Counted from the first letter of the stretch, positions 10,263 to 46,517 are shown. The stretch: DNA of 64,000 nucleotides from an uncultured bacterium (GCA_943787795.1 CALSNU010000001.1:1280001-1344000), one strand, 5' to 3'. Made by a program: numbers and translations. The notes: generated by a model from the letters alone, not told the origin.

Positions 10263-10265
10263 GCG

Positions 10266-11903: not shown

Positions 11904-11953
11904 TGCAGTTGGACGCGCAGCGTTTCTTCGTGGGGAGGGGGGTCTAGAGCGCT

Positions 11954-13369
11954 ATGCGCGATCTCATCGTCGCTCTCTTTGGCCTGGGTGCGATTCCCGT
12001 GGCATTCACGCGGCCCATGGCGGGCCTGTTGGCGTTCTCAATCTTCGCCTATATGCGCCTCCAGGACCTGGCCTGGGGCTTCGCGAAGGGGCAGCGGTGG
12101 TCGTTGTATCTCGCGATTGCGATGGTCGCCGGTTGGTTCTTCCAGCGGAATCGGAAGCAGCCCATCTGGAATCTCCGGACCGGCCTGATGGTGTTCATGC
12201 TGGCCTGGACCTTCATCTCGCTCTTCATCGCCGTCGGCTTCGAGGCCTTCTCGACGAACTTCTTCGTCAACTTCGTCAAGGTTGTCTTCGTCGCAGTATT
12301 CACCACGGCGTTGGTCCAGCGACGTGAGCACCTGCGGGTGTTGTTGTGGGTGATCAGCATGTCCTTCGCCTTCTATGGAGTGAAGAGCGGGGCCCAGGCC
12401 ATCGTGACCGGCGGGTCGCCAATCCTGACCGGGCCGGGGGGCATGATGAAGGACAACAACGACTTCGCGCTCGCGCTTGCGATGGCGGTCCCTCTCATCG
12501 TCGGGCTGGCCACTTCGGAGGTGAATAACTACTACCGGCGTTGGCTCAAGATCTTCGTTCCCCTCACCTACCTGACCATCTTTGCGACGCGCTCAAGGGG
12601 AGGGTTCCTCTCGATCATGCTCGGCACGATCGTGCTCGTCTGGAGGTCCAAGAATCGCTTCGCCGGCTTCGCGACCTTCGGCGCGTTCGCCCTCTTGGGG
12701 GTCCTCGCTCTCCCTTCCAGCATGTTCGAGCGGCTCGATACGCTCCGGAACGTGGAGGCGGACGGCTCAGCCAACGGACGGCTCAAGGCGTGGCGAATCG
12801 CCGGGGAGATCATCCAGGACTACCCGGTGTTCGGCGTCGGCACCGAGCAGTTTCGCGAGCACTACCTCGACTATGGCGACCGAGCGGGGACCCGCGATGG
12901 CACGAGGGTGGTGCACAACGCTTACCTTCAGATCTGGTCCGAGTCCGGGACGCCAGTCTTCCTGGCCTACATGGCGCTGCTGGTGTCTTCCGTGCTCGCC
13001 GTCCAACGGTTGCGGCGACGGGCAGAGAGGGTGTACGAGCGGAGTTGGATCATCTCCTACTGCACGGCTCTGGAGGGGGCCTTGCTAACGTTCATGCTGG
13101 GGAGCGTCTTCCTCAATCGAGCACACTTTGACCTGACCTACCACCTCGTCGCGATGACGGTCGTCTTGGACCGCATCGCATCGGCTGAGCTTGACGCTCC
13201 CCGGCTCGCCGAGCGCGCGACGCCCGAGCGTGGAGGAGCCTTCCGGCGACAGGAGCAGTTCGGCTTCGGTCGAAGTCCCAGCGCTCGTCGTAGCTTCAGG
13301 AGCTCGCGGAGCGCGCCGACACAACTCGGTGGCGGCGCGGGCTTCGCTTCGCCCATGGAGTCGCCCTAG
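11954..13369 (+). CDS. O-antigen ligase/Wzy_C family protein resembling the exosortase-A-associated O-glycosylation ligase
   Basis: MRD start, multiple TM helices, DNNDFALALAM, TRSRGGFL, HNAYLQIWSESG. Confidence 0.85.
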   Translation: MRDLIVALFGLGAIPVAFTRPMAGLLAFSIFAYMRLQDLAWGFAKGQRWSLYLAIAMVAGWFFQRNRKQPIWNLRTGLMVFMLAWTFISLFIAVGFEAFSTNFFVNFVKVVFVAVFTTALVQRREHLRVLLWVISMSFAFYGVKSGAQAIVTGGSPILTGPGGMMKDNNDFALALAMAVPLIVGLATSEVNNYYRRWLKIFVPLTYLTIFATRSRGGFLSIMLGTIVLVWRSKNRFAGFATFGAFALLGVLALPSSMFERLDTLRNVEADGSANGRLKAWRIAGEIIQDYPVFGVGTEQFREHYLDYGDRAGTRDGTRVVHNAYLQIWSESGTPVFLAYMALLVSSVLAVQRLRRRAERVYERSWIISYCTALEGALLTFMLGSVFLNRAHFDLTYHLVAMTVVLDRIASAELDAPRLAERATPERGGAFRRQEQFGFGRSPSARRSFRSSRSAPTQLGGGAGFASPMESP

Positions 13370-13383
13370 GCGAACAAGACGGC

Positions 13384-15318
13384 ATGTGTGGTTTCACAGG
13401 GTTCGGCCTCCTCTCCACCGGGGGTCACAGTGACTTCGCCGCGGAGCATCGTCCACGGCTGGAGCGGATGAATCAAACGCTGGTCCACCGTGGGCCTGAT
13501 GACGGCGGCTACTGCCTGAAGGCCCCCTTCGGCCTCGGCTTCCGGCGCCTGTCGATCATCGATGTCTCCGGCGGGCATCAGCCGATCGAGGCGCCGGGCG
13601 GAGGGCTCGCGGTGGTGGGCAACGGCGAGGTGTACAACTTCCAGGCGCTGCGCGAGCAGCTGCAGGGAAAGGGTGCGCAGTTTCAGTCCGGATCGGACAT
13701 CGAGACGATTCTCCACCTCTATCAGCAGCACGTCCGTCCCGGCGGCGGCGAGGCCGGCGACCTCCTCGAGGTCCCGCGGGCGCTGGTGGGCATGTTCGCG
13801 TTCGCGGTGGCTGACTGGCGAGACCCGGATTGTCCCAGGATCCTCCTCGGCAGGGACCGGCTCGGCATCAAGCCTCTGTATTGGTGCGAGACGGCCGAGG
13901 GACTGTTCTTCGGGAGTGAAGTGAAGGCCATCCTGGCCGCAGGAGTGACCGACCGCGAGATGCGCCGCGAGGCTCTTCTCGACTACCTGGTTCAGGGGTA
14001 TGTCGGCGGCCAGAACAGCGCCTGGGTCGGGGTTCAGCGACTGCCCGCGGGGTGCGTGCTCTCATGGAATCCTCGAGACGGGGTCCGGATCCAGAGGTAC
14101 TGGGACCTCCCCCTCGACGAGCTCCGCGGGGCGCCGCCTGAGGAGGAGGTCCGGGAGTGGCTGAGCCGTGTGGTCGAGGACCGGCTCGTGGCGGAGGTGC
14201 CCCTGGGCGCGTTCCTCTCAGGCGGCATTGACTCGACGGCTGTCGCTCACGCCATGAAGGAGGTGACGGGCCAGGCGCCTGTCCTCTGCACCGTGGGGTT
14301 CCAGGAGAAGTCCCATGACGAGCTGGGGCTGGCCACGGAGACCGCCTCGGCGCTCGGCGCGGTCCACCACACGGAGGTCCTCGAACCAGACCCCAAGGCG
14401 GCGATTGAGGAGCTCCCTTGGTTCTATGACGAGCCGCTCGCGGACCCATCGACCGTGCCCACCTGGTTGGTCTCGAAGGTGGCGCGGAGGCATGTCACCG
14501 TGGCTCTCTCGGGCGACGGCGGCGATGAGATCTTCGGTGGCTATCGCCGGTATGTCCACGACGTCGCGGAGAACCGGATCCGGCGAGCAGCCGGCCCCGC
14601 GGGTCGCCGGGCGATGGGGGCCCTCGGTCGGCTCTATCCCAAGCTGGACTGGGCGCCGCGCATGTTCCGGGCGAAGACCTTCCTGACCAACACGGCGGAC
14701 GACCCTGCGCGGGCTTACTGGCGCAGCGTCTCGCACATGGAGCGAGGCGCAGCGGCGGCCCTGCTCGCGCCCGACCTGCGGCGCGCCCTCGAGGATCACG
14801 ACCCGTTCGACGCGTTCGAGGCGCACTACGCGCGTCCGGAGATCGAGTGCCCCCTCTATCGAGCGCAGTACGCGGACTTCCATACCTGGCTGCCAGACCG
14901 GATCCTCGCCAAGGTCGACCGGGCCTCCATGGCGGTCTCCCTCGAGGTGCGGGTTCCCCTCCTCGATCACCGCTTCGTGGAGCGCTTCGCTCACTCACCG
15001 GTGTCCTCGAAGGTCCAGGGCGGACGTGGCAAGCACGTACTGCGAGAGTCGCTCCGTGGACAGATCGCCGACGGGGTCCTCGACGGTGCGAAGAGGGGCT
15101 TTGATACCCCCCTCGCGGGATGGATCCGGGGCCCGCTGGCTGAGGCGACCCGGGATGCGGTCGAGAGCCTCCCGGAGGACTGGTTCGACCGGGGGCGGCT
15201 GAGGTCCACGCTCGACGCGCACATGTCTGGTGGCGTGAATCACGATCGGCTCCTCTGGAGCTTGCTCGTGCTCGACGCCTGGAGGCAACGTCACAGCGTC
15301 TCCCGGATCGGAGCGTGA
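13384..15318 (+). CDS. asnB: Asparagine synthase-like amidotransferase (EPS/XrtA-associated type)
   Basis: MCG Ntn cysteine, HRGPDD, RRLSIID, RDRLGIKPLY, LSGGIDS, ALSGDGGDEIFGGY, KVDRASMAVSLEVRVPLLDH. Confidence 0.93.
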   Translation: MCGFTGFGLLSTGGHSDFAAEHRPRLERMNQTLVHRGPDDGGYCLKAPFGLGFRRLSIIDVSGGHQPIEAPGGGLAVVGNGEVYNFQALREQLQGKGAQFQSGSDIETILHLYQQHVRPGGGEAGDLLEVPRALVGMFAFAVADWRDPDCPRILLGRDRLGIKPLYWCETAEGLFFGSEVKAILAAGVTDREMRREALLDYLVQGYVGGQNSAWVGVQRLPAGCVLSWNPRDGVRIQRYWDLPLDELRGAPPEEEVREWLSRVVEDRLVAEVPLGAFLSGGIDSTAVAHAMKEVTGQAPVLCTVGFQEKSHDELGLATETASALGAVHHTEVLEPDPKAAIEELPWFYDEPLADPSTVPTWLVSKVARRHVTVALSGDGGDEIFGGYRRYVHDVAENRIRRAAGPAGRRAMGALGRLYPKLDWAPRMFRAKTFLTNTADDPARAYWRSVSHMERGAAAALLAPDLRRALEDHDPFDAFEAHYARPEIECPLYRAQYADFHTWLPDRILAKVDRASMAVSLEVRVPLLDHRFVERFAHSPVSSKVQGGRGKHVLRESLRGQIADGVLDGAKRGFDTPLAGWIRGPLAEATRDAVESLPEDWFDRGRLRSTLDAHMSGGVNHDRLLWSLLVLDAWRQRHSVSRIGA

Positions 15319-15323
15319 CACCC

Positions 15324-16490
15324 ATGCGCATCGGTGTCCTCACGAGCCTCTATCCGTGCCCAGAGCGCCCCTTCGAGGGGATCTTCGCCGAGCGCAAGTG
15401 GCTCGGGCTTCGGTCGCGGGGCCACGACGTGACGGTCGTGCACCCTGTCCCCTGGGGCCCGCGCTGGGCAGCGCCCGTTCTCGGGGAGGCTCGCGCCTAC
15501 CTCGCGCGGATTCCGCGGAGTGAGGATCGCGGAGGGATCCGGGTCAAGAGGCCGCGCTTTGCTCACCTGCCCGGGCGCAGCGGAGGCAACGCCGGCCGGT
15601 TCGCCGCGGCGGGCCTGCGGGCGCTCCTTGGGCCCGGCGCCGAGCGACCTGACGCGGTGGTGTGCGACTACGCCTGGCCTGCCGCAGTCGCGGCGGCGGC
15701 TCTTCAGCGGCGCGGCATTCCCGTGCTGATCAATGGACGGGGGAGCGACGTCCTCCAGGTTCGCGAGGTGCCCTCGCTCGAGCCGCAGCTCACGAGCGGG
15801 CTTCGATGGGCGGACGGGTACACGGCGGTGAGCCAGGACCTCCTCGACGCCATGGTGGCGATGGGAGGGAGCAAGGCGGTGCAGGCCCTCACGCCCAACG
15901 GGGTCAACGACCAGCAGTTCGCTCCCGGCAATCGCCAAGAGGCGCGAGCGCGCCTCGGGCAGCCCGAGGCGGGGGACCTGGTGCTCTGTGTCGGGCACCT
16001 GATCGAGCGCAAGGACCCGCTGCTCGCCTTGCGGGCGTTCGCGGCGGGCGCCGGGGCTGGGGCTCGGCTGGTGTTTGTCGGCCGCGGCCCACTCTCGGAT
16101 GAAGTCTCGAGGGCCGCCGCAGCGCTCGGGCTGGAGTCCAGGGTGAGCCTCCTCGGTGAGCGCCCACCCGAGGAACTCGTGGACTGGTATCGCGCGGCCA
16201 ACCTCTTGCTGCTCACGAGCCGCCGGGAGGGGCGACCCAACGTGGTGCTCGAGGCCCTGAGCGCCGGTTGCCCGGTGCTGGCGACGAGCGCAGGTGGGAC
16301 GGGCGAGCTGATCTCCGATCCGCGCATGCTGGCCTCGACCCGGGACCCGGAGCAGCTCGGGAAGATGCTGCGGGAGCTCCTCGACACTCCCCCTGACGCG
16401 CTCTCACTGCGGAGCACGGTGGGGCACCTCTCATGGGCAGCCAGTATCGATTCGCTCGAGGGCGTGCTGGAGACCGTGGTTCGCGCGTGA
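15324..16490 (+). CDS. Glycosyltransferase family 4 (GT-B, TuaC-like)
   Basis: GSDV, PNGV, VGHLIERK, SRREGRPNVVLEAL (EX7E); GTG at 15315 is an alternative start. Confidence 0.92.
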   Translation: MRIGVLTSLYPCPERPFEGIFAERKWLGLRSRGHDVTVVHPVPWGPRWAAPVLGEARAYLARIPRSEDRGGIRVKRPRFAHLPGRSGGNAGRFAAAGLRALLGPGAERPDAVVCDYAWPAAVAAAALQRRGIPVLINGRGSDVLQVREVPSLEPQLTSGLRWADGYTAVSQDLLDAMVAMGGSKAVQALTPNGVNDQQFAPGNRQEARARLGQPEAGDLVLCVGHLIERKDPLLALRAFAAGAGAGARLVFVGRGPLSDEVSRAAAALGLESRVSLLGERPPEELVDWYRAANLLLLTSRREGRPNVVLEALSAGCPVLATSAGGTGELISDPRMLASTRDPEQLGKMLRELLDTPPDALSLRSTVGHLSWAASIDSLEGVLETVVRA

Positions 16491-16559
16491 GACCGCGGAG
16501 TCCCCGATCGGACTTCCGATGGGGCTTGCTCTTGGCCCGGTCCGTACGATGATCCCACC

Positions 16560-17417
16560 ATGCCCGGCGCACCCCGACACGCTCTCTCCTTCGACGTAGA
16601 GGAGTTCTTCCAGGTCGCGAACCTGAAGGCTGCCTTTCCGAAGGAAAGCTGGGACAGCGTGCCCTCCCGCATCGACATCGCGATGGATCTGCTCCTCGAT
16701 CTCCTGGAGCGGCGGGGCGCACGGGCGACCATGTTCTTCCTCGGGTGGGTCGCTGTACGGCGGCCGGACCTGGTGCGCAGGTGCCATGAGGCCGGGCACG
16801 AGATTGCGAGCCACGGGTGGGAGCACGAGTTCCTTTGGGACCTCGAAGGCGAGGATGGCTTCCGCGATCACCTGCGCAAGACAGAGGAAGCCCTCGAGGC
16901 GGCGGGGGTGCCGCGCCCGGTGGGCTTTCGCGCGTCCACCTTCACGCTCACGCGGGAGACCTGGTGGGCCTTCGACGTGCTTGCTGAGCGGGGGTACCTC
17001 TATGACTCGAGCGTTCACCCCGTTCGACACCCGACGTATGGCGTCCCTGACTTCGAGCCCGGGATCTCTACCGTTGAGACCAAGCGCGGGTCTATCGTGG
17101 AGTTCCCGGTGACTACCTTCCCGTTCGCGGGGAAGAACCTGCCCATAGGAGGCGGTGGGTACTTCCGCCTTCTCCCTGGAGCGGTCCATCGGGCGGCGAT
17201 CGCGAAGGTGACCCGTATGGGGCGCCCCGTGGCGATCTACCTCCACCCCTGGGAATTCGATCCGGGGCAACCGCGAATCGCGGCTCCCCCGCTCAAGAAG
17301 TTTCGCCACTACGTGGGCCTCAGTCGAAGCCTCGACCGGCTGGATCGTCTCCTTCAGACGTGGAGCTTCGGCACCATGCGCGAGGTCCTCGAAGGCGCGG
17401 ATGCGCTCGGCTCATGA
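16560..17417 (+). CDS. Polysaccharide deacetylase, XrtA-system/DUF3473 type
   Basis: SFDVEEFFQV, ATMFFLGWVA, HEIASHGWEH, YDSSVHPVRH..YG, GGGYFRLLP, YLHPWEFDPGQPR, FRHYVGL. Confidence 0.93.
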   Translation: MPGAPRHALSFDVEEFFQVANLKAAFPKESWDSVPSRIDIAMDLLLDLLERRGARATMFFLGWVAVRRPDLVRRCHEAGHEIASHGWEHEFLWDLEGEDGFRDHLRKTEEALEAAGVPRPVGFRASTFTLTRETWWAFDVLAERGYLYDSSVHPVRHPTYGVPDFEPGISTVETKRGSIVEFPVTTFPFAGKNLPIGGGGYFRLLPGAVHRAAIAKVTRMGRPVAIYLHPWEFDPGQPRIAAPPLKKFRHYVGLSRSLDRLDRLLQTWSFGTMREVLEGADALGS

Positions 17418-17471: not shown

Positions 17472-20400
17472 TCAGGGGGTTCCTGCTTCCTGCATGGCGC
17501 GCGTATGCAGGCCTCTCAGGGCGGTCATGACGGGCTCGCGGTAGGGCAGGCGCTCGGCATCGCTCGCCAGAGTCTCCTGGACCTTCGCGATCTCCAAGGC
17601 GTCTTCCGGGGTCCCCCGGCGCCTTAGCATCCTGAGGTAGAGCTCCCCCAGGACCACCGGGTCGACGTCGGTCGCGGCGCGCTTGCGGCCTTGCCAGAGG
17701 TTGGCCAGCCGTTTGACGATCTCGGAGAGGGGGGGCCTGTACATCCGAGCCTGCGCGAGTGAGCGGAGATAGAGCGAGCGCGCGCCGCCGCCCCCCTGGG
17801 CGCGATCTGCGATCGCAAGGACTCGGAAGACGTCCCTTACGCCGTCTCCGCGCTCGATCATGATCTCGGCCAGTGAGTAACCCATGGCCCCATTCGGGTC
17901 GATGGCCAAGAGCGCCTCGTAGATAGCCGCGGCGGCCTCGTCGTCCTCCATCTCCTCGGCGATCTTCGCCCGGAGGTTCCAGAGCTCCAGGTTGCCGGGC
18001 TCGTGGATGAGGTCGCGCTCGACGAGCTTCCGCGCAAGATCCACGCGGACGTCGATGAGGAGCTCAACCCAGCGTCGCGTGCTGCCCCGCCGCAGCGCCT
18101 CAAGGGGGCGCCTTGCCGACAGCTTATAGAGCTGATCCAGCGCTCCCTCGGCCCACTCTCCCCAGCTCCGCCGGGGCAGGCCTGAGAGCTCGAGTCGAGC
18201 CAGGGTCACCATGGGGTCAAGCGGATATCGTTCGCTGAGACGCGTCAGCATCTCCATGGCGCGCTCCCTTCCGATGGCGCCCCGTTGTTGGGCGCCGTTG
18301 GTCTGCGCTTGGACGGCGTAACGGATCGAGAAGAGGAGCGAGTCCACCACCACCGTCTGGAAGATCCCTGGGTCGCCCATCGCAGCGTCGAACAGGAAGT
18401 TGGCCGCGAAGGACGGCTGGTTCGCCCGGATCATCAGGATGCCGAGGATCAGTCGGGCCTCCGTCGTCGAGCTGCCGGCGTCCTTGAGGACGGTCTGGAG
18501 CGTCCGGATCGCCGAGGCGTTGTCATTCCTCCGAGCGAGGTCGCTGGCTTCGGCCAAGGCGACCACGACAGGGTCGTCGATGAGCTCTGCGCCCAGACTG
18601 ACGAGGCGCATGCGCCTCGCGCGAACCACCTCGGGGTGCATGGGCTCCGCGGGGTGCGCCGACTCAGCAAGCTGAACGGACCACTCATGTCCGGGACCGA
18701 ATTGACGATGCTTCTCCACCAATCGCTCCACGAGGTTAGCCCTCGCGGGTCTGTTTCCGCTGGCCTCCAGGGCCACGGCCTTGAGGTAGCTGGTCCAGAT
18801 GTCAGAGCCGGACTCGATGCGAATCTTCTCGAGGATCGGGAGGAGCCAACCGCTCCATTCCGGCAGGTCCGCGATGAGGAGGATCGCCAGGGTCTCTCGC
18901 GGGTCCCGGGAGGTCCGGCCCACGGTGCCCAGGAGGAGCTTCCTGGCATCGGCCACAGCGCTCTGCCCGAACCAGGCAGGCATCGATATCGGGTCCTTTA
19001 CGAGCGCGTCGCTGGCCGCAGCCACTAGTGCCCAAATGGGGTCTCGTTCGTTACGGTCCAGCCCCTCGCCCGCCATGCGCCTGCCGGCCTCCAGCCGTTC
19101 CGCGAGCAAGATCAATGAGACCCCCTTCTGGGGGGTGAGCTTGAATGAAGTGCGGCGCAGGCTCTCGATCTTCTCCGGGAGGTCCGTCCACTTGCGTCGG
19201 CTCACAGCGAGGAGAATGGAGGCAATCTCGGGCGTGCCATCCCGGAGGTAGGCCCTTGAACGCTCGATCGACTCCCGGGCGGCCTCGGGACCGCGCTTCC
19301 TGGAGGTGAGGATGTCGACCAGGATCCGTCGCCGATAGAACTCGGGGGTCCGCGTCGAGGCTTCCTGATCCAGCCGATCGATGATCTCGAGCGCCATCTC
19401 CGCCTGGCCCTTGCTCATGAGCAGGTCTGCGAGATCAAGATAGGTGCCTGGCGAGCCGTCGGCCCAGTCCAGGTCAAGGATAGGCGCGAGACCCCCGGGC
19501 CGATCGAGTTCGAGCAGGACGCGTGCCTTCAGGAGCGCGGCCTCCTCGCTCAGGAGGTGAGTCGGCCCAATGCTCGTGAGGTCTTTGAGTGCCTCCGCAA
19601 ACCTCTCCTCCTCCACGAGGGCCTTCGCCCGGAGCAGTAGAAGAGCGTCCGGAGCGCTGCGTGGGTCGAGCCGCTCAAGCGCCGAGCGCGCATTCTCTGA
19701 TTCGCCGTGCTCCAGGAACCAGCGAGCGACCGCGGCCTTGCCGAATCGCTCGGGGGCGGCCTGGATAGCCGCGATCAGGTCTTCTCCGTCGAGGCGATCT
19801 CCGGGGATGCGGTTCAGGATGACCTCGATGCTCTCGTCGATCCCTGCGAGCTCGATGCGCCTCACAATGTCTCGCTCGACGTTGTACCGGTTAGGGGTGA
19901 CGAGCTTGGCCGCGAGGGCAATATCCAGGGCAGGGATGAGGTCGGGGTGCTCCTTGAGGGCGCGATTGGCTGCCTGGAGCGCCGAATAGCTACGCTCATC
20001 CTCGAGGTGCTTGGTCGCGAGCAGTGCATACGCGGCGGGGCCGAGGTTGCGCACAGCTGGAATCGCCGTGTTGGTGCGATTGGCCTCGCTGACGAGGTCA
20101 CTGACGGACATCCCCTTGGACCTGATTTCCTCGCGACCCGCGTCCCACCACCGTTCGGCGAACTCGGCGTACCGCTGGGGCTCAAGATTGATCGCATCAC
20201 TCAAGGCGGTATCGATCTCGAACCAGGGGATGGGTACGCGCTTCGCGAGCGCCTCGGCCAGCTGCACCTTCTGATCTGCTGTCGGGCCTATCCTGGAGGT
20301 GAAGCCCCTGGTGAGCCCAAAGATCTCGGTCTCGACATCCCCGATGACCTGTCCGAGCTTTGCGAGCCAGAAGCCCGCCTCCGCGCGTGCACCGGGGAAC

Positions 20401-21590
20401 GGCTCGGGGGTGGAGGTGTCCGCGAGGAAGACCTTCAGGTCCTTGAGGCCGCGGCGCATCTGCACCTGAAGCGACGAGGGGTCCTCGACCTTCAGTCCAT
20501 TACAGATCGGCTGAATGTTGCTGTAGAACCGGGACCAGTGGATGCCCGTGTCTCCGCCGATGCTCCGGAGCGCCCGCGCGAGCGCCCCCAGAGGGCCAAA
20601 ATCTCCTGCCTTGTAGAGAAGCTCGGCGGCGAACGCGAGGTGGTTCACATCCTCGATATCGTCCCATTTTGTGCTCCGGGTGACGAAGCGCGCCTCCTCG
20701 AGGCGCCGCTCCAACTGCAGGAGTTGGATCAGCTCGAACTGGATCGGGCCGGAGTCGGAGAGCGACGGGACGACAATCGCAGCGCTGAGCAAGTCGATGG
20801 CCAGGGGGACCTGAGATGCGTCGGTCAGCGCGGTCGAGAGTGCGAGGACGCGGGCCGGGGTGGGGGCCAGCTCGATGGACTTGGCGTAGGCATTCCGAGC
20901 CGCAACGAAGTGCTCCCGCGCCTCTTCCACATGGAGCAGTGCGGCGTACAGGGCTTCCTTCTCGGAGGCCGAGAAGGCCGCGTTGAGTCGGAACTCCAGG
21001 GTCGGGAGGCCAGGGTCGTCTGACTCGCGGGACGCGAACTCCATCAGGAGCTCGGTGGCAATCTCCGCATCCTCTCGAACGAGGTCCAGCTTGATCGCGG
21101 CGACGGAGGGGCTGAGCACCTTGATGGCGGACCGGGTCTCAAGCTGCCCCAGCAGCTCCCAGGCTGCCGCTAGCTGCGGGCTCGCGGTGATGACTGCGCG
21201 GGCCCCGGCGAGTGCCTCTGCGTCCTCGCCGCTCACCGACAGGAGCCCTGCGATGCGGAGCTTCAGCTCCACGTCGCCGGGCTGCAGGGCCTCGGCCCGC
21301 TTGAGGTCGGCGAGGGCGTTGGTGGTGTCGCTGAGCTTGAGGAACACGTCCGCTCGGGCCGTCAGGACCTCCGCGATCAGCAGCTCATCGCCCCCGTCCT
21401 CGGCAGCGGCGAGCGCGAGGGCGAGCTGGCTCAGGGCGGTGCGTTGCTCGAATGCGAGGGTGTCCATCTCCGCCCGCACCTCTGCGATGATCTCTGCCGG
21501 GCCCATGGGGCGTCGTGTGATCACGTAGGTCGTCGCCGCGCCGGCGGCGGAAAGGGCGGCAATCAAGGCCGTTGCGCTGGTCCACTTCAT
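17472..21590 (-). CDS. Large membrane-anchored/secreted TPR-like helical repeat protein (~1370 aa)
   Basis: Hydrophobic N-terminus (MKWTSATALIAALSAAGAATTYVI); many TPR-like helix pairs (ALADLKRAEALQPGD, AAAIYEALLAIDPNG); start set at ATG 21590. Confidence 0.85.
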   Translation of the reverse strand: MKWTSATALIAALSAAGAATTYVITRRPMGPAEIIAEVRAEMDTLAFEQRTALSQLALALAAAEDGGDELLIAEVLTARADVFLKLSDTTNALADLKRAEALQPGDVELKLRIAGLLSVSGEDAEALAGARAVITASPQLAAAWELLGQLETRSAIKVLSPSVAAIKLDLVREDAEIATELLMEFASRESDDPGLPTLEFRLNAAFSASEKEALYAALLHVEEAREHFVAARNAYAKSIELAPTPARVLALSTALTDASQVPLAIDLLSAAIVVPSLSDSGPIQFELIQLLQLERRLEEARFVTRSTKWDDIEDVNHLAFAAELLYKAGDFGPLGALARALRSIGGDTGIHWSRFYSNIQPICNGLKVEDPSSLQVQMRRGLKDLKVFLADTSTPEPFPGARAEAGFWLAKLGQVIGDVETEIFGLTRGFTSRIGPTADQKVQLAEALAKRVPIPWFEIDTALSDAINLEPQRYAEFAERWWDAGREEIRSKGMSVSDLVSEANRTNTAIPAVRNLGPAAYALLATKHLEDERSYSALQAANRALKEHPDLIPALDIALAAKLVTPNRYNVERDIVRRIELAGIDESIEVILNRIPGDRLDGEDLIAAIQAAPERFGKAAVARWFLEHGESENARSALERLDPRSAPDALLLLRAKALVEEERFAEALKDLTSIGPTHLLSEEAALLKARVLLELDRPGGLAPILDLDWADGSPGTYLDLADLLMSKGQAEMALEIIDRLDQEASTRTPEFYRRRILVDILTSRKRGPEAARESIERSRAYLRDGTPEIASILLAVSRRKWTDLPEKIESLRRTSFKLTPQKGVSLILLAERLEAGRRMAGEGLDRNERDPIWALVAAASDALVKDPISMPAWFGQSAVADARKLLLGTVGRTSRDPRETLAILLIADLPEWSGWLLPILEKIRIESGSDIWTSYLKAVALEASGNRPARANLVERLVEKHRQFGPGHEWSVQLAESAHPAEPMHPEVVRARRMRLVSLGAELIDDPVVVALAEASDLARRNDNASAIRTLQTVLKDAGSSTTEARLILGILMIRANQPSFAANFLFDAAMGDPGIFQTVVVDSLLFSIRYAVQAQTNGAQQRGAIGRERAMEMLTRLSERYPLDPMVTLARLELSGLPRRSWGEWAEGALDQLYKLSARRPLEALRRGSTRRWVELLIDVRVDLARKLVERDLIHEPGNLELWNLRAKIAEEMEDDEAAAAIYEALLAIDPNGAMGYSLAEIMIERGDGVRDVFRVLAIADRAQGGGGARSLYLRSLAQARMYRPPLSEIVKRLANLWQGRKRAATDVDPVVLGELYLRMLRRRGTPEDALEIAKVQETLASDAERLPYREPVMTALRGLHTRAMQEAGTP

Positions 21591-21606
21591 AGTTTGCTCC
21601 GACAGA

Positions 21607-23163
21607 CTACGCCTGCAGCGAGTTGAAGTTGACGTCGAGGAGGCCGTACTTGCGCATCTTGTTGAAGAGCGTTGAGCGGTTGATCCCAAGCTCTGTCGCG
21701 GCCCGGTCTCGGCGCCCGCTGTTGCGGTTCAAAGAGCGTTCGATAAGGAGCTTCTCGGGACCCTCCAGGGCCTCTTTCAAGGGCATGGATCGCGTCAGGT
21801 CCGAGAGCCACTCCAGGCCAGCGGGCAAGGAATCTGCGTGCGGCGCGGCTGTTGAGCTGGCCGCCTCCTCCAGCAGATCGTTGTCGAGGCTCGAGGCGTC
21901 CAGCAAGCCCTTTGCGCCGCTGGGGTCTCCGTCCATGGAGAGAATGACGGCCCTCTCGAGGGCGTGCTCAAGTTGACGTACGTTGCCCGGGAAGCGGGCG
22001 GCTGCAAGGACCCGAAGGGCTGCAGGTGAGATCCCGCGGATGGGCTTTTGGTACTCCTTCGCAAATCGCTGGACGAACGCCTCGGCCAGGGCCGCGAGGT
22101 CGCCAGGCCGCTCCCGCAGCGGGGGAAGCCCCACCTCCACCACGCGCAGGCGCCAGAGGAGGTCCTCGCGGAACTCGCCGGCCTCTACCCGTGCGTCCAG
22201 GTCCGCGTTGGTCGCCGCGACGATGCGCACATCTGACGTCCGGGTCTCTGACTCGCCCACGCGCTCGAAGGCGCGATCTTGCACGGCCCGCAGGAGCTTC
22301 ACCTGGAGCTCGAGGGGGGCCGAGTCGATCTCATCCAGGAAGATCGTCCCGCCATCGGCGGACTCGAAGCGTCCCGCGCGGTCCTTGGCGGCTCCGGTGA
22401 AGGCCCCCTTGGCGTGGCCGAAGAGCTCCGACTCGAGGAGCCCTGCGGGCAGGGCGCCGCAGTTGACCTCCACGAACGGGCCTGAGCGCCTGCTGGAAGA
22501 CTGGTGGAGGGTCTTCGCCAGGAGCGATTTGCCCGTCCCCGTTTCGCCCAGGAGCAGCACCGTCGCCCGTGTGTCCGCCACCGACTCAAGGATCCGCAGG
22601 GCCTGCTTCAGCTTGACGTCGCGGGTCTTGATGTTGCCGAAGGAGAAGCGCTCATCCAGTCTCTCGCGCAGCGACTCGTTCTCTCGCGAGAGCGAGTGGC
22701 GCTCCAGCGCTCGCGCGGTGGCGATCACGAGGTCCCCGTCGGAGGGTTCGGTCGACGTGGCGGTGACACCGAGAGCCTCGGCGCGGGCGGTGTCACCGAT
22801 CAAGACGAGCGCTGGCCGGCCATCGAGCGCGAGGAGAGCCTCCACGTCCTCGTCGTCGGCGTCGTCTGCGCGGACCAGGATCACCTCGTAGCGGTCGGGG
22901 CCCGCGAGGAGGGCCCCGAGGCTCGCGTCACCCGAGTGATGCCGGCCGGGCGCCGAGCGCTCGGCGAGCATCGCGCAGACCCGTCGGCCCCGAGCGATGT
23001 CGCTGTCGATGACGAGCACCCGTCGGCCGCGGAGGATCGACTCTCCAGGGGCGCGCCGCGGGTAGGGCCGGGGGGCGAAGCTCAGGTCCGGACCGATGCC
23101 GGATCCCGAGGCGTCGCGTGCTGTTCCTTCGACATGACCATCCATGTCGAGAACTTTCGACAT
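21607..23163 (-). CDS. Sigma54-dependent enhancer-binding protein (NtrC family) with a degenerate receiver domain
   Basis: Walker A GETGTGKS, ELFGHAKGAFTGA, Walker B IFLDEID, FREDL, FPGNVRQL, Fis HTH AATELGINRSTLFNKM. Confidence 0.95.
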   Translation of the reverse strand: MSKVLDMDGHVEGTARDASGSGIGPDLSFAPRPYPRRAPGESILRGRRVLVIDSDIARGRRVCAMLAERSAPGRHHSGDASLGALLAGPDRYEVILVRADDADDEDVEALLALDGRPALVLIGDTARAEALGVTATSTEPSDGDLVIATARALERHSLSRENESLRERLDERFSFGNIKTRDVKLKQALRILESVADTRATVLLLGETGTGKSLLAKTLHQSSSRRSGPFVEVNCGALPAGLLESELFGHAKGAFTGAAKDRAGRFESADGGTIFLDEIDSAPLELQVKLLRAVQDRAFERVGESETRTSDVRIVAATNADLDARVEAGEFREDLLWRLRVVEVGLPPLRERPGDLAALAEAFVQRFAKEYQKPIRGISPAALRVLAAARFPGNVRQLEHALERAVILSMDGDPSGAKGLLDASSLDNDLLEEAASSTAAPHADSLPAGLEWLSDLTRSMPLKEALEGPEKLLIERSLNRNSGRRDRAATELGINRSTLFNKMRKYGLLDVNFNSLQA

Positions 23164-23214
23164 CGGCGTCCTGTGCCTTGAACGCAGTCGCCATCGGCGG
23201 GGCCGCAGCGCTGG

Positions 23215-25245
23215 TCAGCGCGCGGGCCCGCCCGAGAATGAGACATCAAAGACGCGATGGCCGCCCTCCTCCTCCCGGAGGACGAGATCCCCGCCCTGGC
23301 CGACGGCGATGGCCCCGGCGGCGGCGAGGGCATTGGCCCCGATCTCCGGGAGTCGCGCCTTGAGGGCGTAGGGCTGGAGGGCCTTCGCGGGCTCGAGACC
23401 GGCCATCGGCCCCGCCGGAAAGCGAATGTGTGCACAGGGGGTGCCTGCGGCGTCCGCGTCGACGGAGACCCTGAGGACATCGCCGGGACCCGCGCAGCCG
23501 ATGGCCGTGAGCAGCAGGGCCTCGAGCGCCATCGTGACCAGTAGCTTGTCCGCTTCCACCGGAGCCTGCTCGATCCTCGAACGGAAGAGGATGCGCGGCG
23601 CGTCCGGGGTCTGGCCGGCGAGCGCGCCGAGCTGCTCCTCGACGAGGACACTCAGGTCGAAGACCTGCTCGCCCCTGGGCGGAGGGGCTGCGACGTACCC
23701 GATGGTGCGGGTGAACTGCCGGAGGTGCCCGAGCTCACGCTCGAGGCCCAGGTGGGCGTGGGTGGAGCGAGCGGTCAGGTCAAGGGCTTGGACGATGTCG
23801 GCGAGGTCAGCGACCTGATCTTTCAGCCAGGCCGGCCGCTGGGACTCCCTCGCCGCGGCATCTGCGCTGGGGCCTGCGCTGGGGTCGGTCGGAAGGGCCT
23901 CGTTCGGGGAGGAGCTGACCGCTGGGGAGGCTTCACCCACCGATCGCCGGTCGGAAGGGGGCTCACTTGATGTGCCGGTCGCGTCGGGGAACTCGGGCGG
24001 GGCGTCGGCGACTCCGTCGGAGTCACGGGTCTCAAGGTCTCGCTCTCCGGCGATCTCCGCAGGCGGCCCGAGGTCGATCGCGGTGTCTTCCTCTGCGCCC
24101 TCGAGAGCCGACGCCTCGTGGCCCCCCGGCCCCATGGCGGGAATCACGAAGTCGTCGGTCTCGCTGAAGAACGCCTCGATCTCCTCGTCGGTCAGGAGCG
24201 GTCCGTCGAGCGAGAGCGCGTCGGCGGGGTGCTTATCCGCGGTATCCGCCTCGACCGTCGAGGCGTCCAGCACCGGAGACTCGTGCAGCGTGGACTCCGC
24301 CGCGACGGCGCCTGGTCCGCCCTCGGAGGGGGATACGTCCGCGCCCCGGAGCGTGGATTTGGCGACCGGAATTGGGCGCTCAGACTCGGCGGTCGCGGTA
24401 CGCAGGAAGGCGGACCGAGCTCGCTCGGAGGGAGCCTGCGGGTGGAGGCGTGGAGAGGCGGGAGCGCCGGGCGCGAGGGGGCCGGCATGGAGCAGTGGCG
24501 ACGGCGGCGGCGGAGCCTGACCCTGGATCGACAGCGGCTGAGATGGCGGGCCTTGCTCGCCGGCGCCAAGGGCCGAAGGGGCGGCTGCATCGCGTTCGGG
24601 CCTCCCGTCCCGCTCAGGCGCTCCGTCGCGCCCGAGGATCGACTCGATCTCGCTGAGCTCGAGCGCCTTTCGGTGGTCGGCGTCTGGATCGCCTGGCTCC
24701 GGTGCAGCGGCTCCCCAAGTCGGAGCCTCGGTGGGCAGCCGTCTCGCGGCGTCCTGGTCATTCACCGCGTCGGCCCCTTCCGCGCTCGACGTCTCCTGGC
24801 CGGTGCCCGCTGGGGCAGATCTCGCGGGAGCTGAGGCCGCCCCGAGCGAGCCTGCTTCCGGCGTATTGGACGGGTCCAGGTCACCGTGTCGAAGCTGGTC
24901 GAGGGCGAGCCCCTCAAGTTGTTCGAGGTCCAGCGGCCAGGGCAGGCGCGCTCCTCGGATCCCCGCTTCGGCGAAGGCTGACGCTGTGAGGTCCTCTTCG
25001 CCGACCCAGAGGATGCGGCTTCCTGGACAGGACTCCTGCCAGCGCCGGAGGAGGCCTGCGTCAGCGAATGGGACGTCCTTGAGGTCCGCGATGAGCCTGG
25101 CGCCAGCGGCGGCGTCCAGTTCGAACAGCTCCATGGCGTCGTCGGCACGCTGAACCTGGCCCGCGGGGGCTCCAGAGGCCACGAGCAGCGCGTCCAGCCT
25201 GATGAGGCGGGGCGAGGAGAGGACGATGATCCGGGCGCGGGCCAT
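23215..25245 (-). CDS. Histidine-kinase-like protein: pseudo-receiver, long disordered acidic linker, degenerate HATPase_c-like domain
   Basis: C-terminus follows the HATPase_c layout (VFDLSVLVEE..VEADKLLVTMALEALLLTAI..ALQPY..GAIAVGQGGDLVL..FDVSF) without canonical boxes; start ATG 25245. Confidence 0.7.
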   Translation of the reverse strand: MARARIIVLSSPRLIRLDALLVASGAPAGQVQRADDAMELFELDAAAGARLIADLKDVPFADAGLLRRWQESCPGSRILWVGEEDLTASAFAEAGIRGARLPWPLDLEQLEGLALDQLRHGDLDPSNTPEAGSLGAASAPARSAPAGTGQETSSAEGADAVNDQDAARRLPTEAPTWGAAAPEPGDPDADHRKALELSEIESILGRDGAPERDGRPERDAAAPSALGAGEQGPPSQPLSIQGQAPPPPSPLLHAGPLAPGAPASPRLHPQAPSERARSAFLRTATAESERPIPVAKSTLRGADVSPSEGGPGAVAAESTLHESPVLDASTVEADTADKHPADALSLDGPLLTDEEIEAFFSETDDFVIPAMGPGGHEASALEGAEEDTAIDLGPPAEIAGERDLETRDSDGVADAPPEFPDATGTSSEPPSDRRSVGEASPAVSSSPNEALPTDPSAGPSADAAARESQRPAWLKDQVADLADIVQALDLTARSTHAHLGLERELGHLRQFTRTIGYVAAPPPRGEQVFDLSVLVEEQLGALAGQTPDAPRILFRSRIEQAPVEADKLLVTMALEALLLTAIGCAGPGDVLRVSVDADAAGTPCAHIRFPAGPMAGLEPAKALQPYALKARLPEIGANALAAAGAIAVGQGGDLVLREEEGGHRVFDVSFSGGPAR

Positions 25246-25448: not shown

Positions 25449-26477
25449 ATGCCTCACGGAGACCCCGCAAACAGCCCGGCCCAGCACGACGAGAGCGGCA
25501 TCTCCGCCTCCGCCGTCGAGCTGTCGCTGGTCATCCCGGTCTTTGACGAGGAGCAGAACCTGCCGCAGCTGCACGCCGAGATCACCCGCCATGTCGCTCC
25601 CATGGGGCTCAGCTGGGAGGTGGTCTACGTGGACGACCGCAGCGTGGATCGCTCCTTTGAAGTGCTCATGGAGCTCCGAGAGAGAGACGAGCATGTACGG
25701 GTGGTTCGCTTCCGGCGGAACTTCGGACAGACCCCGGCGATGAGCGCTGGCTTCGAGCACAGCCGAGGTGACGTGGTCGTGACGCTGGACGCGGATCTCC
25801 AGAATGACCCGGCGGATATCCCCGCGCTCGTCGCCAAGCTCGGGGAGGGCTACGACATCGTGGTTGGGTGGCGGAAGAACCGGCAGGACGGACTCGTCCT
25901 TCGAAAGGTGCCCTCGCGGATCGCCAACCGCATGATCGCGAGGCTCACGGGGGCCACCGTTCACGACACGGGCTGCACCCTCAAGGCCTTCCGGCGCGAG
26001 CTGGTCGAGAACCTGCCCATCTACGCGGAACAGCACCGCTTCCTTCCGGTGCTCGCCCTCGCTAGCGGCGCCCGCATCGCGGAGATTGTGGTGAACCACA
26101 GACCTCGGATTCACGGGGTCAGCAAGTACGGGATCGGTCGCGCCGTCCGCGTCGCGCTGGACCTCTTGACCATGAAGATGCTCAGCTCGTTCGCGAAGAG
26201 CCCGCTGCCCTACTTCACGCTCCTCTCGATCCCGTTCGTGGTCACCCCGCCCCTGTACTTCGTCGCGGCGCTGCTCTCCTCAGAGGCTCCCACGTTTGAC
26301 AGCGGCTGGGGGCAGGCTGCGCTCTTCACCTTGGGCTTGATGATCTCCGCAGGCGTCTACTTTGTCCTTCTCGGGCTCCTCGCCGAGCTGGTGGTCAAGG
26401 TGTTTGGGCGGAGCGATCGGCCGCTGAGCAGCGCCGACGGCAGCGCGGCGGTCTTGCGGACAGGGGGCGTGGCGTGA
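25449..26477 (+). CDS. Glycosyltransferase family 2, polyprenol-phosphate (ArnC/GtrB/DPM1-like)
   Basis: LSLVIPVFDEE, YVDDRSVD, RRNFGQT, TLDADLQNDP, HDTGCTLKAFRR, HRFLP, two C-terminal TMs. Confidence 0.93.
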   Translation: MPHGDPANSPAQHDESGISASAVELSLVIPVFDEEQNLPQLHAEITRHVAPMGLSWEVVYVDDRSVDRSFEVLMELRERDEHVRVVRFRRNFGQTPAMSAGFEHSRGDVVVTLDADLQNDPADIPALVAKLGEGYDIVVGWRKNRQDGLVLRKVPSRIANRMIARLTGATVHDTGCTLKAFRRELVENLPIYAEQHRFLPVLALASGARIAEIVVNHRPRIHGVSKYGIGRAVRVALDLLTMKMLSSFAKSPLPYFTLLSIPFVVTPPLYFVAALLSSEAPTFDSGWGQAALFTLGLMISAGVYFVLLGLLAELVVKVFGRSDRPLSSADGSAAVLRTGGVA

Positions 26478-27472
26478 GTGATGTCGTACAACCCGCGCAG
26501 TCCGAGGCGACTGTGCTGGTCTCCAACGCCGCCCCCGATGTGACCATCGTCCTGCCGGTGCAGACCCAGAAGGCCGAGATCGACAACGTCCTCGAGGCCC
26601 TGGGCTCCACGCTGGAGCGACTGGGGTACACGTGGGAGTGCATCCTGGTCTTCGATGGGATCAAGGGGCCGCTCTGGGACCACGCGACCGCCCTCCAGGA
26701 GAAGACCCGCGATCAGGTCCGGACGATCGCCTTGCACAAGGCCTTCGGAGAGTCCGTCTGCCTGTCCAGCGCCTTCGAGCACGCCCGCGGCGGACTGATC
26801 CTGACCTCGCCTCCCTACGTCCAGACGGACCCGGACGGCCTACGGAGGATCTTCGAGAGCATCGACGACGGGGCGGACTTCGTGACCACCTGGAGGACGA
26901 CGCGCATTGACTCGAGGCTGAATCAGCTGCAGTCGTTCGCCTTCAACTGGATCGTCCGGAAGGTCGTCGGCGCGTCCTTCCATGACCTGAACAGCACCCT
27001 GCGCGTCATGCGCCGCGAGGTCCTCGATCAGATGACCATCTACGGCAACATGTATCGCTACCTCCCCGCTGTGGCGTATCGCCAGGGGTTCCGCGTCGAC
27101 GAGGTGCAGGTGCGGCACCTTTCTGAGTGGGGGAGCAGCAGCGTCTTCGGGCCCGGGATCTACCTCCGGCGAGCTCTCGATGTGCTGGGGTTGATGTTCC
27201 TTGCCCGGTTCACCCACAAGCCGCTGCGCTTCTTCGGCACCCTTGGCGGCTTCCTGATGTTCATCGGGGGCCTGCTGGCTGGGGTCGCGCTCATGGAGTG
27301 GGTGCTCCGGAGTGGAGACTTCTCGCTCTACAAGACGCCCTTCTTCCTGGTGGGTGTCCTCATGGGTGTCCTCGGCGCTCAGATCGTCGGCTTCGGACTC
27401 GTGGGGGAGATCATCGTGTTCACCCAGGCGCGGAACGTCCGGGAGTACCGGATCGAGCGGATCTACGAGTGA
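26474..27472 (+). CDS. GT2 ArnC-like paralogue lacking the DxD motif
   Basis: Colinear with the upstream GT2 (FGES, QTDP, HDLNSTLR, YRYLP, PLRFFG, GLVGEII) but DAD is replaced by PPY. Confidence 0.88.
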   Translation: MSDVVQPAQSEATVLVSNAAPDVTIVLPVQTQKAEIDNVLEALGSTLERLGYTWECILVFDGIKGPLWDHATALQEKTRDQVRTIALHKAFGESVCLSSAFEHARGGLILTSPPYVQTDPDGLRRIFESIDDGADFVTTWRTTRIDSRLNQLQSFAFNWIVRKVVGASFHDLNSTLRVMRREVLDQMTIYGNMYRYLPAVAYRQGFRVDEVQVRHLSEWGSSSVFGPGIYLRRALDVLGLMFLARFTHKPLRFFGTLGGFLMFIGGLLAGVALMEWVLRSGDFSLYKTPFFLVGVLMGVLGAQIVGFGLVGEIIVFTQARNVREYRIERIYE

Positions 27473-28563
27473 TGGGCACCACAACCGAGACGACCGGTGA
27501 GTCGGGGGCTACGGCCGGGTCGGCAGCGCCCCTCGTGGTCCGCGCGGCGCTATCGACAGATACTGCGGCAATGGACCGGTTCGTTCTCTCTGCGGAGGAC
27601 GGGACGTTCTTCCACCTGTCGGGCTGGACGCGCGCGGTCGTGGACGAATTCAAGCACAGGGACCGATCCCTGGTCGCTCTCCGCGGCGACCAGGTCGTCG
27701 GCGTCCTGCCGCTGACTGAATGCGGGGGGGTGCTTGGGGGCCGGTCGCTGATCTCCAACGCCTATGCGGTCTACGGCGGCCCTGCGGCCGCGGACCGGGA
27801 GACCGAGGTGGCGCTGGTGCGCGCCGCGGAGGAGCTGGCTGTGGCCGAGGGCGTGGGGCGCCTGGAGCTGCGATGCAAGCGCGACCTCGACCTGGGGTTC
27901 GAGCGGCTCGATCTCCACGCGACCTTCATCCGCGAGCTGCCTGATCAGGCCGAGGAGGTGCTTAAGCGCATGCCCAAGAAGGCGCGGGCGGATGCTCGCA
28001 AGGCGCGCGAGGGGCACGGCCTGACGCTCGTGGAGGGCCGCTGGTATCTGGGCGACCTCGTCCGCCTCTTCCACGCGAACAAGCAGGCTCTGGGCTCGCC
28101 GGCGCTGCCCGCCACGTTCTTCGCCCGCCTGCTCTCGAACTTCCCGGACCACTCCACGATCCACCTCACCAAGCAAGGGGATGAGCCGGTCATGGCGGTC
28201 ATGTCGTTCCTCTTCCGGGATCAGGTGCTCGCGTACTACTCGGGCTCAGCTCCGGACGCGGACCGGCGGTGCAAGGCCAGCGGGTTCACCTACATGGCCC
28301 TCCAGGAGTGGTCCGTCCGCGCGGGCTATCGGCTCTTCGATTTTGGGCGGAGCCGAAAGGGGGCCGGTGCGTTCGCCTTCAAGGCGCGACAGGGCTTTGA
28401 GGCGCAGGACCTGTACTACCAGGTGCGCCTCGTCCGGGATCGCGCGCTGCCGAGCCTCAACCCGTCCAACCCCAAGACGCTGGTCCTGCAGCGTGGATGG
28501 CGCAGCCTCCCCGCGGGCCTCGCTCGCCGCCTCTCGACCTCGGCCTCGCGCTACCTCCCCTGA
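27472..28563 (+). CDS. FemAB-related GNAT protein (XrtA/PEP-CTERM system type)
   Basis: TFFHLSGW, GVLPL, YAVYGG, FDFGRSRKGAGAFAFK, LNPSNPK; TGATG overlap. Confidence 0.9.
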   Translation: MGTTTETTGESGATAGSAAPLVVRAALSTDTAAMDRFVLSAEDGTFFHLSGWTRAVVDEFKHRDRSLVALRGDQVVGVLPLTECGGVLGGRSLISNAYAVYGGPAAADRETEVALVRAAEELAVAEGVGRLELRCKRDLDLGFERLDLHATFIRELPDQAEEVLKRMPKKARADARKAREGHGLTLVEGRWYLGDLVRLFHANKQALGSPALPATFFARLLSNFPDHSTIHLTKQGDEPVMAVMSFLFRDQVLAYYSGSAPDADRRCKASGFTYMALQEWSVRAGYRLFDFGRSRKGAGAFAFKARQGFEAQDLYYQVRLVRDRALPSLNPSNPKTLVLQRGWRSLPAGLARRLSTSASRYLP

Positions 28564-43653: not shown

Positions 43654-46054
<2,401 letters not shown>

Positions 46055-46094
46055 GCCCGTCGCTTCGCTCCCAACCACCTCTCCCAAGAGAAGC

Positions 46095-46517
46095 ATGGCA
46101 GGCCCCATCTCACTCCGCGTTATCACGCCCGAAGCTGTCGCCCTCGACACGACGTGCTCCTCCATCAGCTTCCCGACGACCGACGGGTCGGTGGGGGTGC
46201 TGAAGGGGCACGCTCCGATGGTCGCGGCCCTCGGTGTCGGCGAACTCCTGATCCGTGGTGACGCCGCTGACAACGCGATGTTCATCGCGGGCGGGTTCGC
46301 TGAGGTTCGCGACAACGTGGTTCGCGTCGTGACCGACGTCTCCGAGCCGCCCACCGAGATCGACGTGGAGCGCGCCTCGAGGGCCGCCGAACGCGCTCGC
46401 GCGCGGCTCGAGACCAGCGAGTCGGTGGAGGGCGAGCACCTTGACGTGCTCCGCGCCCGCGCGTCGCTGTCCCGCGCGATCATGCGTCAGCAGATCGCGA
46501 CCAAGTACCGCCGCTGA
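46095..46517 (+). CDS. atpC: F1 ATP synthase subunit epsilon
   Basis: LRVITPE, GVLKGHAPM, GGFAEV, EIDVERA. Confidence 0.97.
   Translation: MAGPISLRVITPEAVALDTTCSSISFPTTDGSVGVLKGHAPMVAALGVGELLIRGDAADNAMFIAGGFAEVRDNVVRVVTDVSEPPTEIDVERASRAAERARARLETSESVEGEHLDVLRARASLSRAIMRQQIATKYRR

Follow-up and report, generated by a model that had tools for sequence, protein, structure and literature searches.

A histidine pseudokinase beside a sigma54 activator with an eroded receiver in a Planctomycetota exopolysaccharide locus: likely descendant of a four-part module and possible contact switch

How could a histidine-kinase-like protein and a sigma54 activator that both lack the residues of phosphotransfer form a regulatory unit, and from what did such a pair descend? 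The question is raised by a 64,000-nucleotide stretch of DNA from an uncultured bacterium (GCA_943787795.1, CALSNU010000001.1:1280001-1344000; hereafter the window), whose genes have homologues carrying Planctomycetota names. Three genes lie on its minus strand, separated by gaps of 51 and 16 bp: a kinase-like gene at 23215-25245 (676 amino acids, aa), a sigma54 enhancer-binding protein gene at 21607-23163 (518 aa), and a gene for a giant tetratricopeptide repeat (TPR) protein at 17472-21590 (1372 aa, ATG at 21590). A preliminary description had singled out this tightly spaced trio among exopolysaccharide (EPS) genes as PrsK-PrsR-PrsT-like, with a dismantled phosphorelay, and had proposed a control module that works by protein contact instead of phosphorylation. 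The arrangement is real, its order is conserved in relatives, and the tie to EPS genes was borne out by a neighbourhood survey of the relatives' loci.

The 676-aa protein is a histidine pseudokinase, i.e., a histidine-kinase fold (DHp plus CA) without catalytic motifs. Searched as a single sequence, it matched no Pfam and no NCBIfam family. A profile of its C-terminal part matched ZraS (E 4e-7), hhalign of the core against the genome's own kinases gave 97.5-98.5%, and the structure model matched DHp plus CA folds (Foldseek E 7e-10 to HK853) and the CA domain of ThkA (Z 19.2, root-mean-square deviation (rmsd) 2.7 Å, 148 residues). The confident parts of the AlphaFold model are a domain at aa 1-120 (24886..25245), a DHp-like helical hairpin at aa 472-519 (23689..23832), and an alpha/beta domain at aa 528-669 (23239..23664), which is the CA (GHKL) fold without N, G1 or G2 box, while aa 127-454 (23884..24867) are mostly disordered. 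By pattern counts, the H, N and G2 boxes occurred in none of 194 distinct homologous cores and a DxGxG string somewhere in 8 of them; the same patterns, used as a control, found all four boxes in 12/12 canonical kinases of the K2 type introduced below. The reported absence of canonical boxes is thus confirmed, and the decay is family-wide rather than local.

No histidine is conserved in the DHp columns 466-485, where at most 6 of the 183 covering sequences have one in any column. Highly conserved in the hairpin are Gln477 (169/183), Asp480 (157/183), Leu481, Asp483 (177/183) and Gln486. The lost histidine would fall at position 472 by gapless sequence alignment, at 476 with one gap, and at about 480 by the end points of the HK853 structure overlay, and none of these three registers holds a conserved histidine. 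Reading the H-box as a PrsK box with His replaced by Ala was dropped once the K1 and K2 relatives described below came to light.

The first 120 residues, overlooked in the preliminary description, are receiver-like: the best match was the atypical CpaE receiver 4dad (E 3e-4), and the predicted local distance difference test (pLDDT) score is 89-98. In this pseudo-receiver, Asp54 is kept in 21/22 homologues, whereas the lysine is replaced by tryptophan in 21/22, the Thr/Ser position is mostly glycine, and the acidic pocket is gone. The following Ala/Pro/acidic linker has a net charge of −39 and two short confident helices, and its length is highly variable among homologues. Against three congeners, the ratio of non-synonymous to synonymous substitution rates (dN/dS) was 0.35-0.48 for the linker and 0.07-0.11 for the pseudokinase core, which is under strong purifying selection. 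In the CA domain, the N-box helix forms the sole strongly hydrophobic stretch of the protein. It is therefore correct that a transmembrane or GAF sensor is absent, but this is no loss, since the relatives examined are soluble receiver-kinases. Some versions consist of receiver, linker and CA only, without the DHp helices (L056:8135-9298, L057:8211-9257, L058:6465-7619, L062:9673-10758 and L135:6540-7667). In the activators of these five loci, the Thr/Ser position is acidic throughout and the lysine is mostly replaced by arginine.

The activator is the second component. It consists of an eroded receiver (approximately aa 45-155), an AAA+ core (aa 175-410) and a Fis-type helix-turn-helix (HTH) domain (aa 470-506). 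In the Pfam search, Sigma54_activat (E 1e-66), an AAA lid and HTH_8 were recovered, and Response_reg was not matched. At the key receiver positions (first and second acidic residue, phospho-Asp, Thr/Ser, Lys), the protein reads D/S/R/G/T, while GAFTGA, Walker A and B, and the arginine finger of the AAA+ core are all intact. The latter is the most constrained part of the activator in the window's genus (dN/dS 0.03-0.07 against the same congeners), and the dead receiver is conserved as well (0.05-0.26), which suggests a binding role. A degenerate receiver next to an intact AAA+ core, as originally claimed, is what these data show. All features of a sigma54 enhancer-binding protein, namely the core motifs, the HTH and an rpoN gene in the genome, are present. 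Two rpoN genes were found (G000:C4:42050-43384 and G000:C3:191821-193659); in the second, some 130 inserted codons separate the matched parts. In 4/41 loci, an rpoN gene is close to the module. Members of the activator clade, canonical ones included, have Ser/Thr after the Walker A lysine where the paralogues checked have Glu, which serves as a mark of orthology.

The origin of the pair becomes apparent from its relatives. A class-wide search with the f4 kinase (f numbers denote families) at E 1e-22 was too strict (2/251), and orthologues were instead reached through the activator. Its best matches led to 30 sister-family loci: 16 with a short receiver-kinase upstream, 12 without, and two with four genes. 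In all 16 receiver-kinases, here called K1, aspartate replaces the histidine of an otherwise recognisable H-box, and the 15 that were aligned (L094 was left out for a frameshift) have no N or G2 box. The two four-gene loci are those of family f8, where a dead receiver-kinase (K1), a canonical kinase (K2), an activator whose receiver is canonical, and a TPR gene stand between the glycosyltransferase (GT2) pair and the deacetylase gene. K2 of f8 is a sensorless canonical kinase with HisKA and HATPase_c above cut-off. Across the phylum, K2 was found in 24/251 genomes, and in the loci fetched from other classes it adjoins a canonical activator in 20/20; six of these also hold a K1-like gene a few kb upstream, with the histidine kept and the N and G2 boxes gone.

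In a tree of 43 kinase cores, the kinases of the window's family, the f8 K1 and the His-to-Asp kinases grouped together (support 95/91); the His-bearing K1 genes joined this group more weakly (82/82), and K2 stood apart (98/81). From this tree and the K2 loci it follows that the window's dead kinase is a K1, whose ATP site was lost while K2 still served the activator. The idea that the dead kinase is the decayed cognate kinase of the activator was accordingly rejected: it groups with K1, and the cognate K2 is a separate gene that was not found in the window genome (85% complete), where the best match (E 5e-21) was to generic kinases and 0/18 of the genome's own kinases fell into the K2 clade. 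The receivers follow the same line. If a receiver with the second acidic Asp, phospho-Asp, Thr/Ser and Lys all present is called canonical, 22/22 activators beside K2 are canonical versus 2/86 without K2, in a set selected by the Walker A and GAFTGA motifs from kin genomes whose counts are not independent. The f4 activator receiver departs from canonical solely by a Glu at the acidic position.

On these grounds, the trio likely descends from a four-part, Planctomycetota-specific module of K1, the soluble true kinase K2, a phospho-receiver activator and a TPR protein, from which K2 was lost. The series would run from an ATP-dead K1 with its histidine kept to His-to-Asp, loss of the true kinase, an eroded receiver and finally an HTH only; this order is read from the distribution among relatives. 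L059 (G039:C67), which has rpoN close by and is without a TPR gene, carries a His-to-Asp kinase and a near-canonical activator that converge on accC-glmS-epimerase, with which the EPS region of the window begins. The pair of K2 and activator in other classes often has diguanylate cyclase or receiver-phosphodiesterase genes as neighbours (L165, L166, L168, L172-L174, L176, L178 and L180), which hints at a link to cyclic di-GMP (c-di-GMP).

The assignment of the three genes to PrsK, PrsR and PrsT did not hold. All three proteins, as well as the intact activator, TPR protein and K2, missed the family cut-offs, the architecture differs, and the activator clade excludes PrsR. The PrsK model TIGR02916 (cut-off 300 bits) did not match the window protein, found nothing above cut-off in the genome, and matched 1/25 cores at E 0.2; intact K2 scored 72 and 86 bits, and an Alteromonas PrsK, the positive control, 387. 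Against TIGR02915 (PrsR, cut-off 502.6), the window activator scored 312, and the intact orthologues reached 387-420 but scored higher against AtoC; the Alteromonas PrsR control reached 491, with PrsR as its best family, and is thus itself slightly below the cut-off. For PrsT (TIGR02917, cut-off 312), the window TPR protein scored 33.5 bits, the f8 orthologue gave no match at E 1e-12, and the Alteromonas control scored 324. In the activator tree, all 28 sampled members of the module fall into a single clade (100/99) that excludes the two PrsR-type sequences, although a deep sister relation is possible. PrsK falls outside the K1 clade of the kinase tree, but as a single long-branched sequence at an unresolved fork. 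PrsK is a transmembrane sensor kinase, whereas the window protein is soluble and starts with a receiver fold; PrsR has a phosphorylatable receiver, whereas the window activator has no phosphorylation residues; PrsT has a lipoprotein signal, whereas the window TPR protein of about 1370 aa has an anchor without a lipobox. Shared with PrsK-PrsR-PrsT are the gene order of kinase, sigma54 activator and TPR protein, and the site among XrtA-type EPS genes.

Nevertheless, the module probably parallels the PrsKRT system in function without being orthologous, since in sister families, as in that system, the locus includes an exosortase gene and PEP-CTERM genes are preceded by sigma54 sites. Exosortase (PF09721) was found in 31/32 genomes of family f10, 10/11 of f7 and 3/3 of f8, versus 8/31 in the window's family; it lies in the locus itself in 12/17 sister-family loci of 20 kb, where it adjoins the deacetylase gene; it scores below the XrtA cut-off (114/208). 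PEP-CTERM genes number 2-4 in each of the five sister-family genomes searched (14 in total), and −24/−12 sites were found just upstream of four of the 14, in four of the five genomes, all of them encoding short lipoproteins. By our own score, built on a −24/−12 consensus, three of the four sites reach at least 24, a value reached by about 2% of random 350-nt windows; the sites are predictions to which no particular activator is assigned. The four products (L257, L258, L259 and L260, each with its sigma54-type site just upstream) are Gly/Pro/Ser-rich and, being lipoproteins that end in PEP-CTERM, would be anchored at both ends. One study found the sigma54 motif and the Prs proteins only in Proteobacteria (PMC1569441); another reports an RpoN-dependent PEP-CTERM gene and a role of prsT in floc formation (PMC9850573).

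The window genome departs from this picture and from XrtA/PEP-CTERM carriers in general. No exosortase or PEP-CTERM gene was found in it (G000, 85% complete), an exosortase was found in 0/4 congeners, and the place next to the deacetylase gene is without one in the window. As a consequence, the targets in the window genome must differ from those of the sister families. Two sister families encode their PEP-CTERM lipoprotein upstream of asnS; at this place, no lipoprotein was found in the window genome. The best −24/−12 matches in this genome precede secreted proteins, flagellar-type genes and groEL; as the genome has about ten activators, they are assignable to no single one. Two of the best sites (G000:C6:239135, plus strand, and G000:C6:50027, minus strand) stand before genes for secreted proteins of 715-750 aa that resemble each other at the C-terminal end and are candidate targets for one or another activator.

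Within the window's family, the coupling of pseudokinase and activator can be followed in many genomes. At E 1e-12, the kinase core was found in 65/88 genomes of the family and in 1/162 others in the order, the misses outside the family reflecting search sensitivity. The order kinase-activator-TPR was kept in 19/20 relative loci (20 of 30 matching genomes examined). An overlapping set of 65 loci shows a GT2 gene diverging upstream of the pseudokinase in 58/58 loci long enough, a TPR gene within 6 kb downstream in 46/55, and the activator directly downstream in 39/58, with one more as a read-through frame and three with the activator further off. A full activator is kept in 55 of the 65 pseudokinase genomes; an activator search at E 1e-104 had overlooked five genomes that do carry it. 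The trio is split in G030 (L042/L076) and G061 (L071/L077): activator and TPR gene are on a different contig from the pseudokinase, which has kept its place beside the GT2 pair. HTH-only remnants of the activator occur at L287:5130-5861, L290:5439-5918, L291:5333-5956, L292:5594-6073 and L242:6521-7144. In genus g45, 4/4 genomes have such a short remnant between pseudokinase and TPR gene, an in-frame Fis-like HTH protein of about 130 aa that stands alone, its receiver and AAA+ core gone.

How, then, might the module work? We tentatively favour, at a little less than an even chance, a pseudokinase that switches the activator by contact and without phosphate, in a NifL-like manner, because the most constant pseudokinase residues sit on DHp helix 1, the docking helix of HK853, which carries that protein's receiver-docking residues (268, 271 and 275 according to structure-entry titles). 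Very probably, neither the pseudokinase nor the activator uses phosphate, and the activator would, with good probability, still drive sigma54 promoters. In NtrC1- and DctD-type activators, the receiver and a coiled-coil linker hold the activator off. Here, the eroded yet conserved receiver and the coiled-coil linker would do so until a partner binds, which would be the pseudokinase, through its conserved DHp helices, as NifL acts on NifA. The output would be genes for cell-surface proteins, namely PEP-CTERM lipoprotein genes in the sister families and other genes in the window's family, for which we infer a loss of exosortase, and the TPR protein may serve polysaccharide or glycoprotein assembly outside the membrane. 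That the dead kinase and the Asp-less activator signal through the old kinase-receiver interface by contact alone, with the path to this state preserved in relatives, is a more doubtful proposition. Of the module proposed in the preliminary description, the phosphorylation-free part is the best reading, whereas control of the activator by contact is no more than likely, because in 9/65 genomes the pseudokinase is present and a full activator is not.

Several observations weigh against contact switching. Besides an HTH remnant only in four of those nine genomes, no activator was found in five (83-91% complete; tallied by hand with the loci checked), and one further genome could not be judged; in 7/9, the kinase core scores as high as elsewhere. 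Conversely, the activator is present in 18 of the 23 family genomes without a pseudokinase match, some of which carry the DHp-less version, and eight loci have an activator but no kinase match beside it. The pairing is therefore not obligate, and the pseudokinase is linked more tightly to the GT2 pair and the TPR gene than to the activator. The DHp helices, the proposed docking face, are lost in the lineages of L056-L058, L062 and L135. As 22/29 receivers of the other sister families keep Asp and Lys, another kinase may still phosphorylate them. The window genome yielded no target promoter, and sigma54 sites are not enriched before the GT2 operon (1/92), the activator (0/32) or the deacetylase gene (0/45), with a background of about 2%; upstream of wza, searched in the window only, no site reached a score of 23.5. 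The idea that sigma54 directly controls the flanking EPS genes was dropped for this lack of enrichment before the genes tested. Finally, kinship among the genomes makes the counts look more independent than they are, and K1 has long branches in the tree.

Much of this would also fit two uncoupled neighbours: an activator that is constitutive or set by its abundance or a ligand, and a pseudokinase that acts as a scaffold or sensor for envelope machinery such as the adjacent GT2 glycosyltransferases, much as PsmA serves as a scaffold in Streptomyces. The persistence of either protein without the other, the constant GT2 neighbour and the long disordered acidic linker speak for it, as does PsmA, a hybrid kinase without the histidine that contains a disordered region and affects transcription little (PMC12963549). 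Yet the GT2 adjacency may merely reflect a shared divergent promoter, the pseudokinase stands directly upstream of the activator across the order, and the dead activator receiver is still conserved, so that we consider this alternative possible but less probable. An unlikely option is a reversed, DivL-like flow, in which the pseudokinase would read another receiver, or its own, through the DHp face and relay its state to a kinase or some other partner encoded elsewhere, with the activator as one possible output. K1 near the true kinase K2 in f8 and 6/20 other-class loci, often near the diguanylate cyclase/receiver-phosphodiesterase genes, the retained Asp54 of its own receiver and the DivL model (PMC4211667) would agree with this, but searches of the window genome did not find K2, the loci examined show no other co-occurring partner gene, and the pseudokinase's own receiver is without acidic pocket and lysine. 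Still less likely is an activator that mainly serves as a repressor binding DNA, or as a Fis-like protein, in a module fading since its exosortase and PEP-CTERM targets were lost. The in-frame remnant of g45, repeated activator loss in a family with exosortase mostly absent, and a window genome without PEP-CTERM genes would suit it, whereas the AAA+ core, with GAFTGA and arginine finger intact, is just the part most constrained in the window's genus.

Contact switching also has parallels among known systems. NifL, a non-phosphorylating homologue of kinases, uses its DH and GHKL domains to bind NifA (PMC12998190), and, as in the window, it is encoded beside a sigma54 activator without phosphorylation control (PMC12998190). 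NifL has PAS sensors and a GHKL domain that binds ADP/ATP, and NifA has a GAF domain (PMC12998190); the window pseudokinase has no PAS domain and no N or G boxes but a pseudo-receiver as input, and its activator has a decayed receiver. Binding was shown for NifL and NifA (PMC12998190) and is proposed for the window pair. As in DivL and PsmA, the phospho-histidine is replaced (by Asp in sister families, variably here) and the core is under selection (PMC4211667, PMC12963549); the position of K1 beside an active kinase in some lineages resembles DivL acting on CckA (PMC4211667), and a disordered region is shared with PsmA, whose receiver Asp is dispensable (PMC12963549). Both are PAS-domain cell-polarity proteins, and neither is known to be paired with a receiver-decayed sigma54 activator (PMC4211667, PMC12963549). 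The receiver-DHp-CA architecture is that of the Rec-controlled kinase LvrB (PMC13269768), the one listed structure that aligns over the whole pseudokinase model (Z 17.3, rmsd 13.1 Å, 265 residues); LvrB, however, is an active kinase with a phosphorylatable receiver (PMC13269768), whereas both domains of the window protein lack catalytic residues. No description of the module was found in the literature searched, which covers few subscription papers.

The remaining parts of the locus are as follows. The TPR protein, assigned by domain search, has a hydrophobic anchor at aa 6-24 without a lipobox Cys and is predicted to be periplasmic and membrane-anchored; in the first 60 residues of 14 aligned N-termini, anchors are likewise hydrophobic, 13/14 without Cys. 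A search of the ESM Atlas returned generic TPR clusters only. Divergent from the trio, an operon at 25449..28563 (plus strand; TIGRFAM and neighbourhood evidence) encodes two ArnC-like GT2 glycosyltransferases and a FemAB-family, XrtA-associated protein. An EPS operon at 9444..17417 (plus strand; TIGRFAM and Pfam), downstream of the trio, encodes export and chain-length proteins, an O-glycosylation ligase, an amidotransferase, a GT4 and, as its last gene, convergent with the trio, an XrtA-system deacetylase. XrtA-system cut-offs (bits/cut-off) were passed by the deacetylase (TIGR03006, 306/276), the O-glycosylation ligase (TIGR03097, 277/188) and the FemAB-like protein (TIGR03019, 264/260), and missed by the amidotransferase (586/817), chain-length (95/279) and export (61/180) proteins. 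Further along, 32965-63982 holds genes for an extracytoplasmic function (ECF) sigma factor, a TPR protein, NFACT, ATP synthase, Asp and Phe tRNA synthetases, a sodium symporter and a B12 radical SAM enzyme; 44594-46483, 60083-62725 and 62822-63982 have no Pfam match.

In four marine metatranscriptome runs of one study, contigs cover the region thinly and evenly, mostly at 99% identity or more and with no indels; as this may be DNA carry-over, it is not evidence of transcription. A cultured carrier is Saltatorellus ferox Poly30 (L191), with a kinase-like gene at 60% identity, which forms large aggregates rich in matrix (10.1101/817700).

For histidine pseudokinases, a few isolated examples are known (NifL, DivL and PsmA), and the passage from phosphorelay to contact switch is usually guessed from its end points. 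In the present case, related genomes have the intact, the half-dismantled and the fully dismantled version at the same locus, so that each step could be purified and compared. In addition, sigma54 control of PEP-CTERM genes would be extended from Proteobacteria, the only group for which it has been described (PMC1569441), to Planctomycetota, with different proteins. What makes the locus valuable is the series that has survived between the intact and the dismantled state, together with a probable Planctomycetota parallel to PrsKRT.

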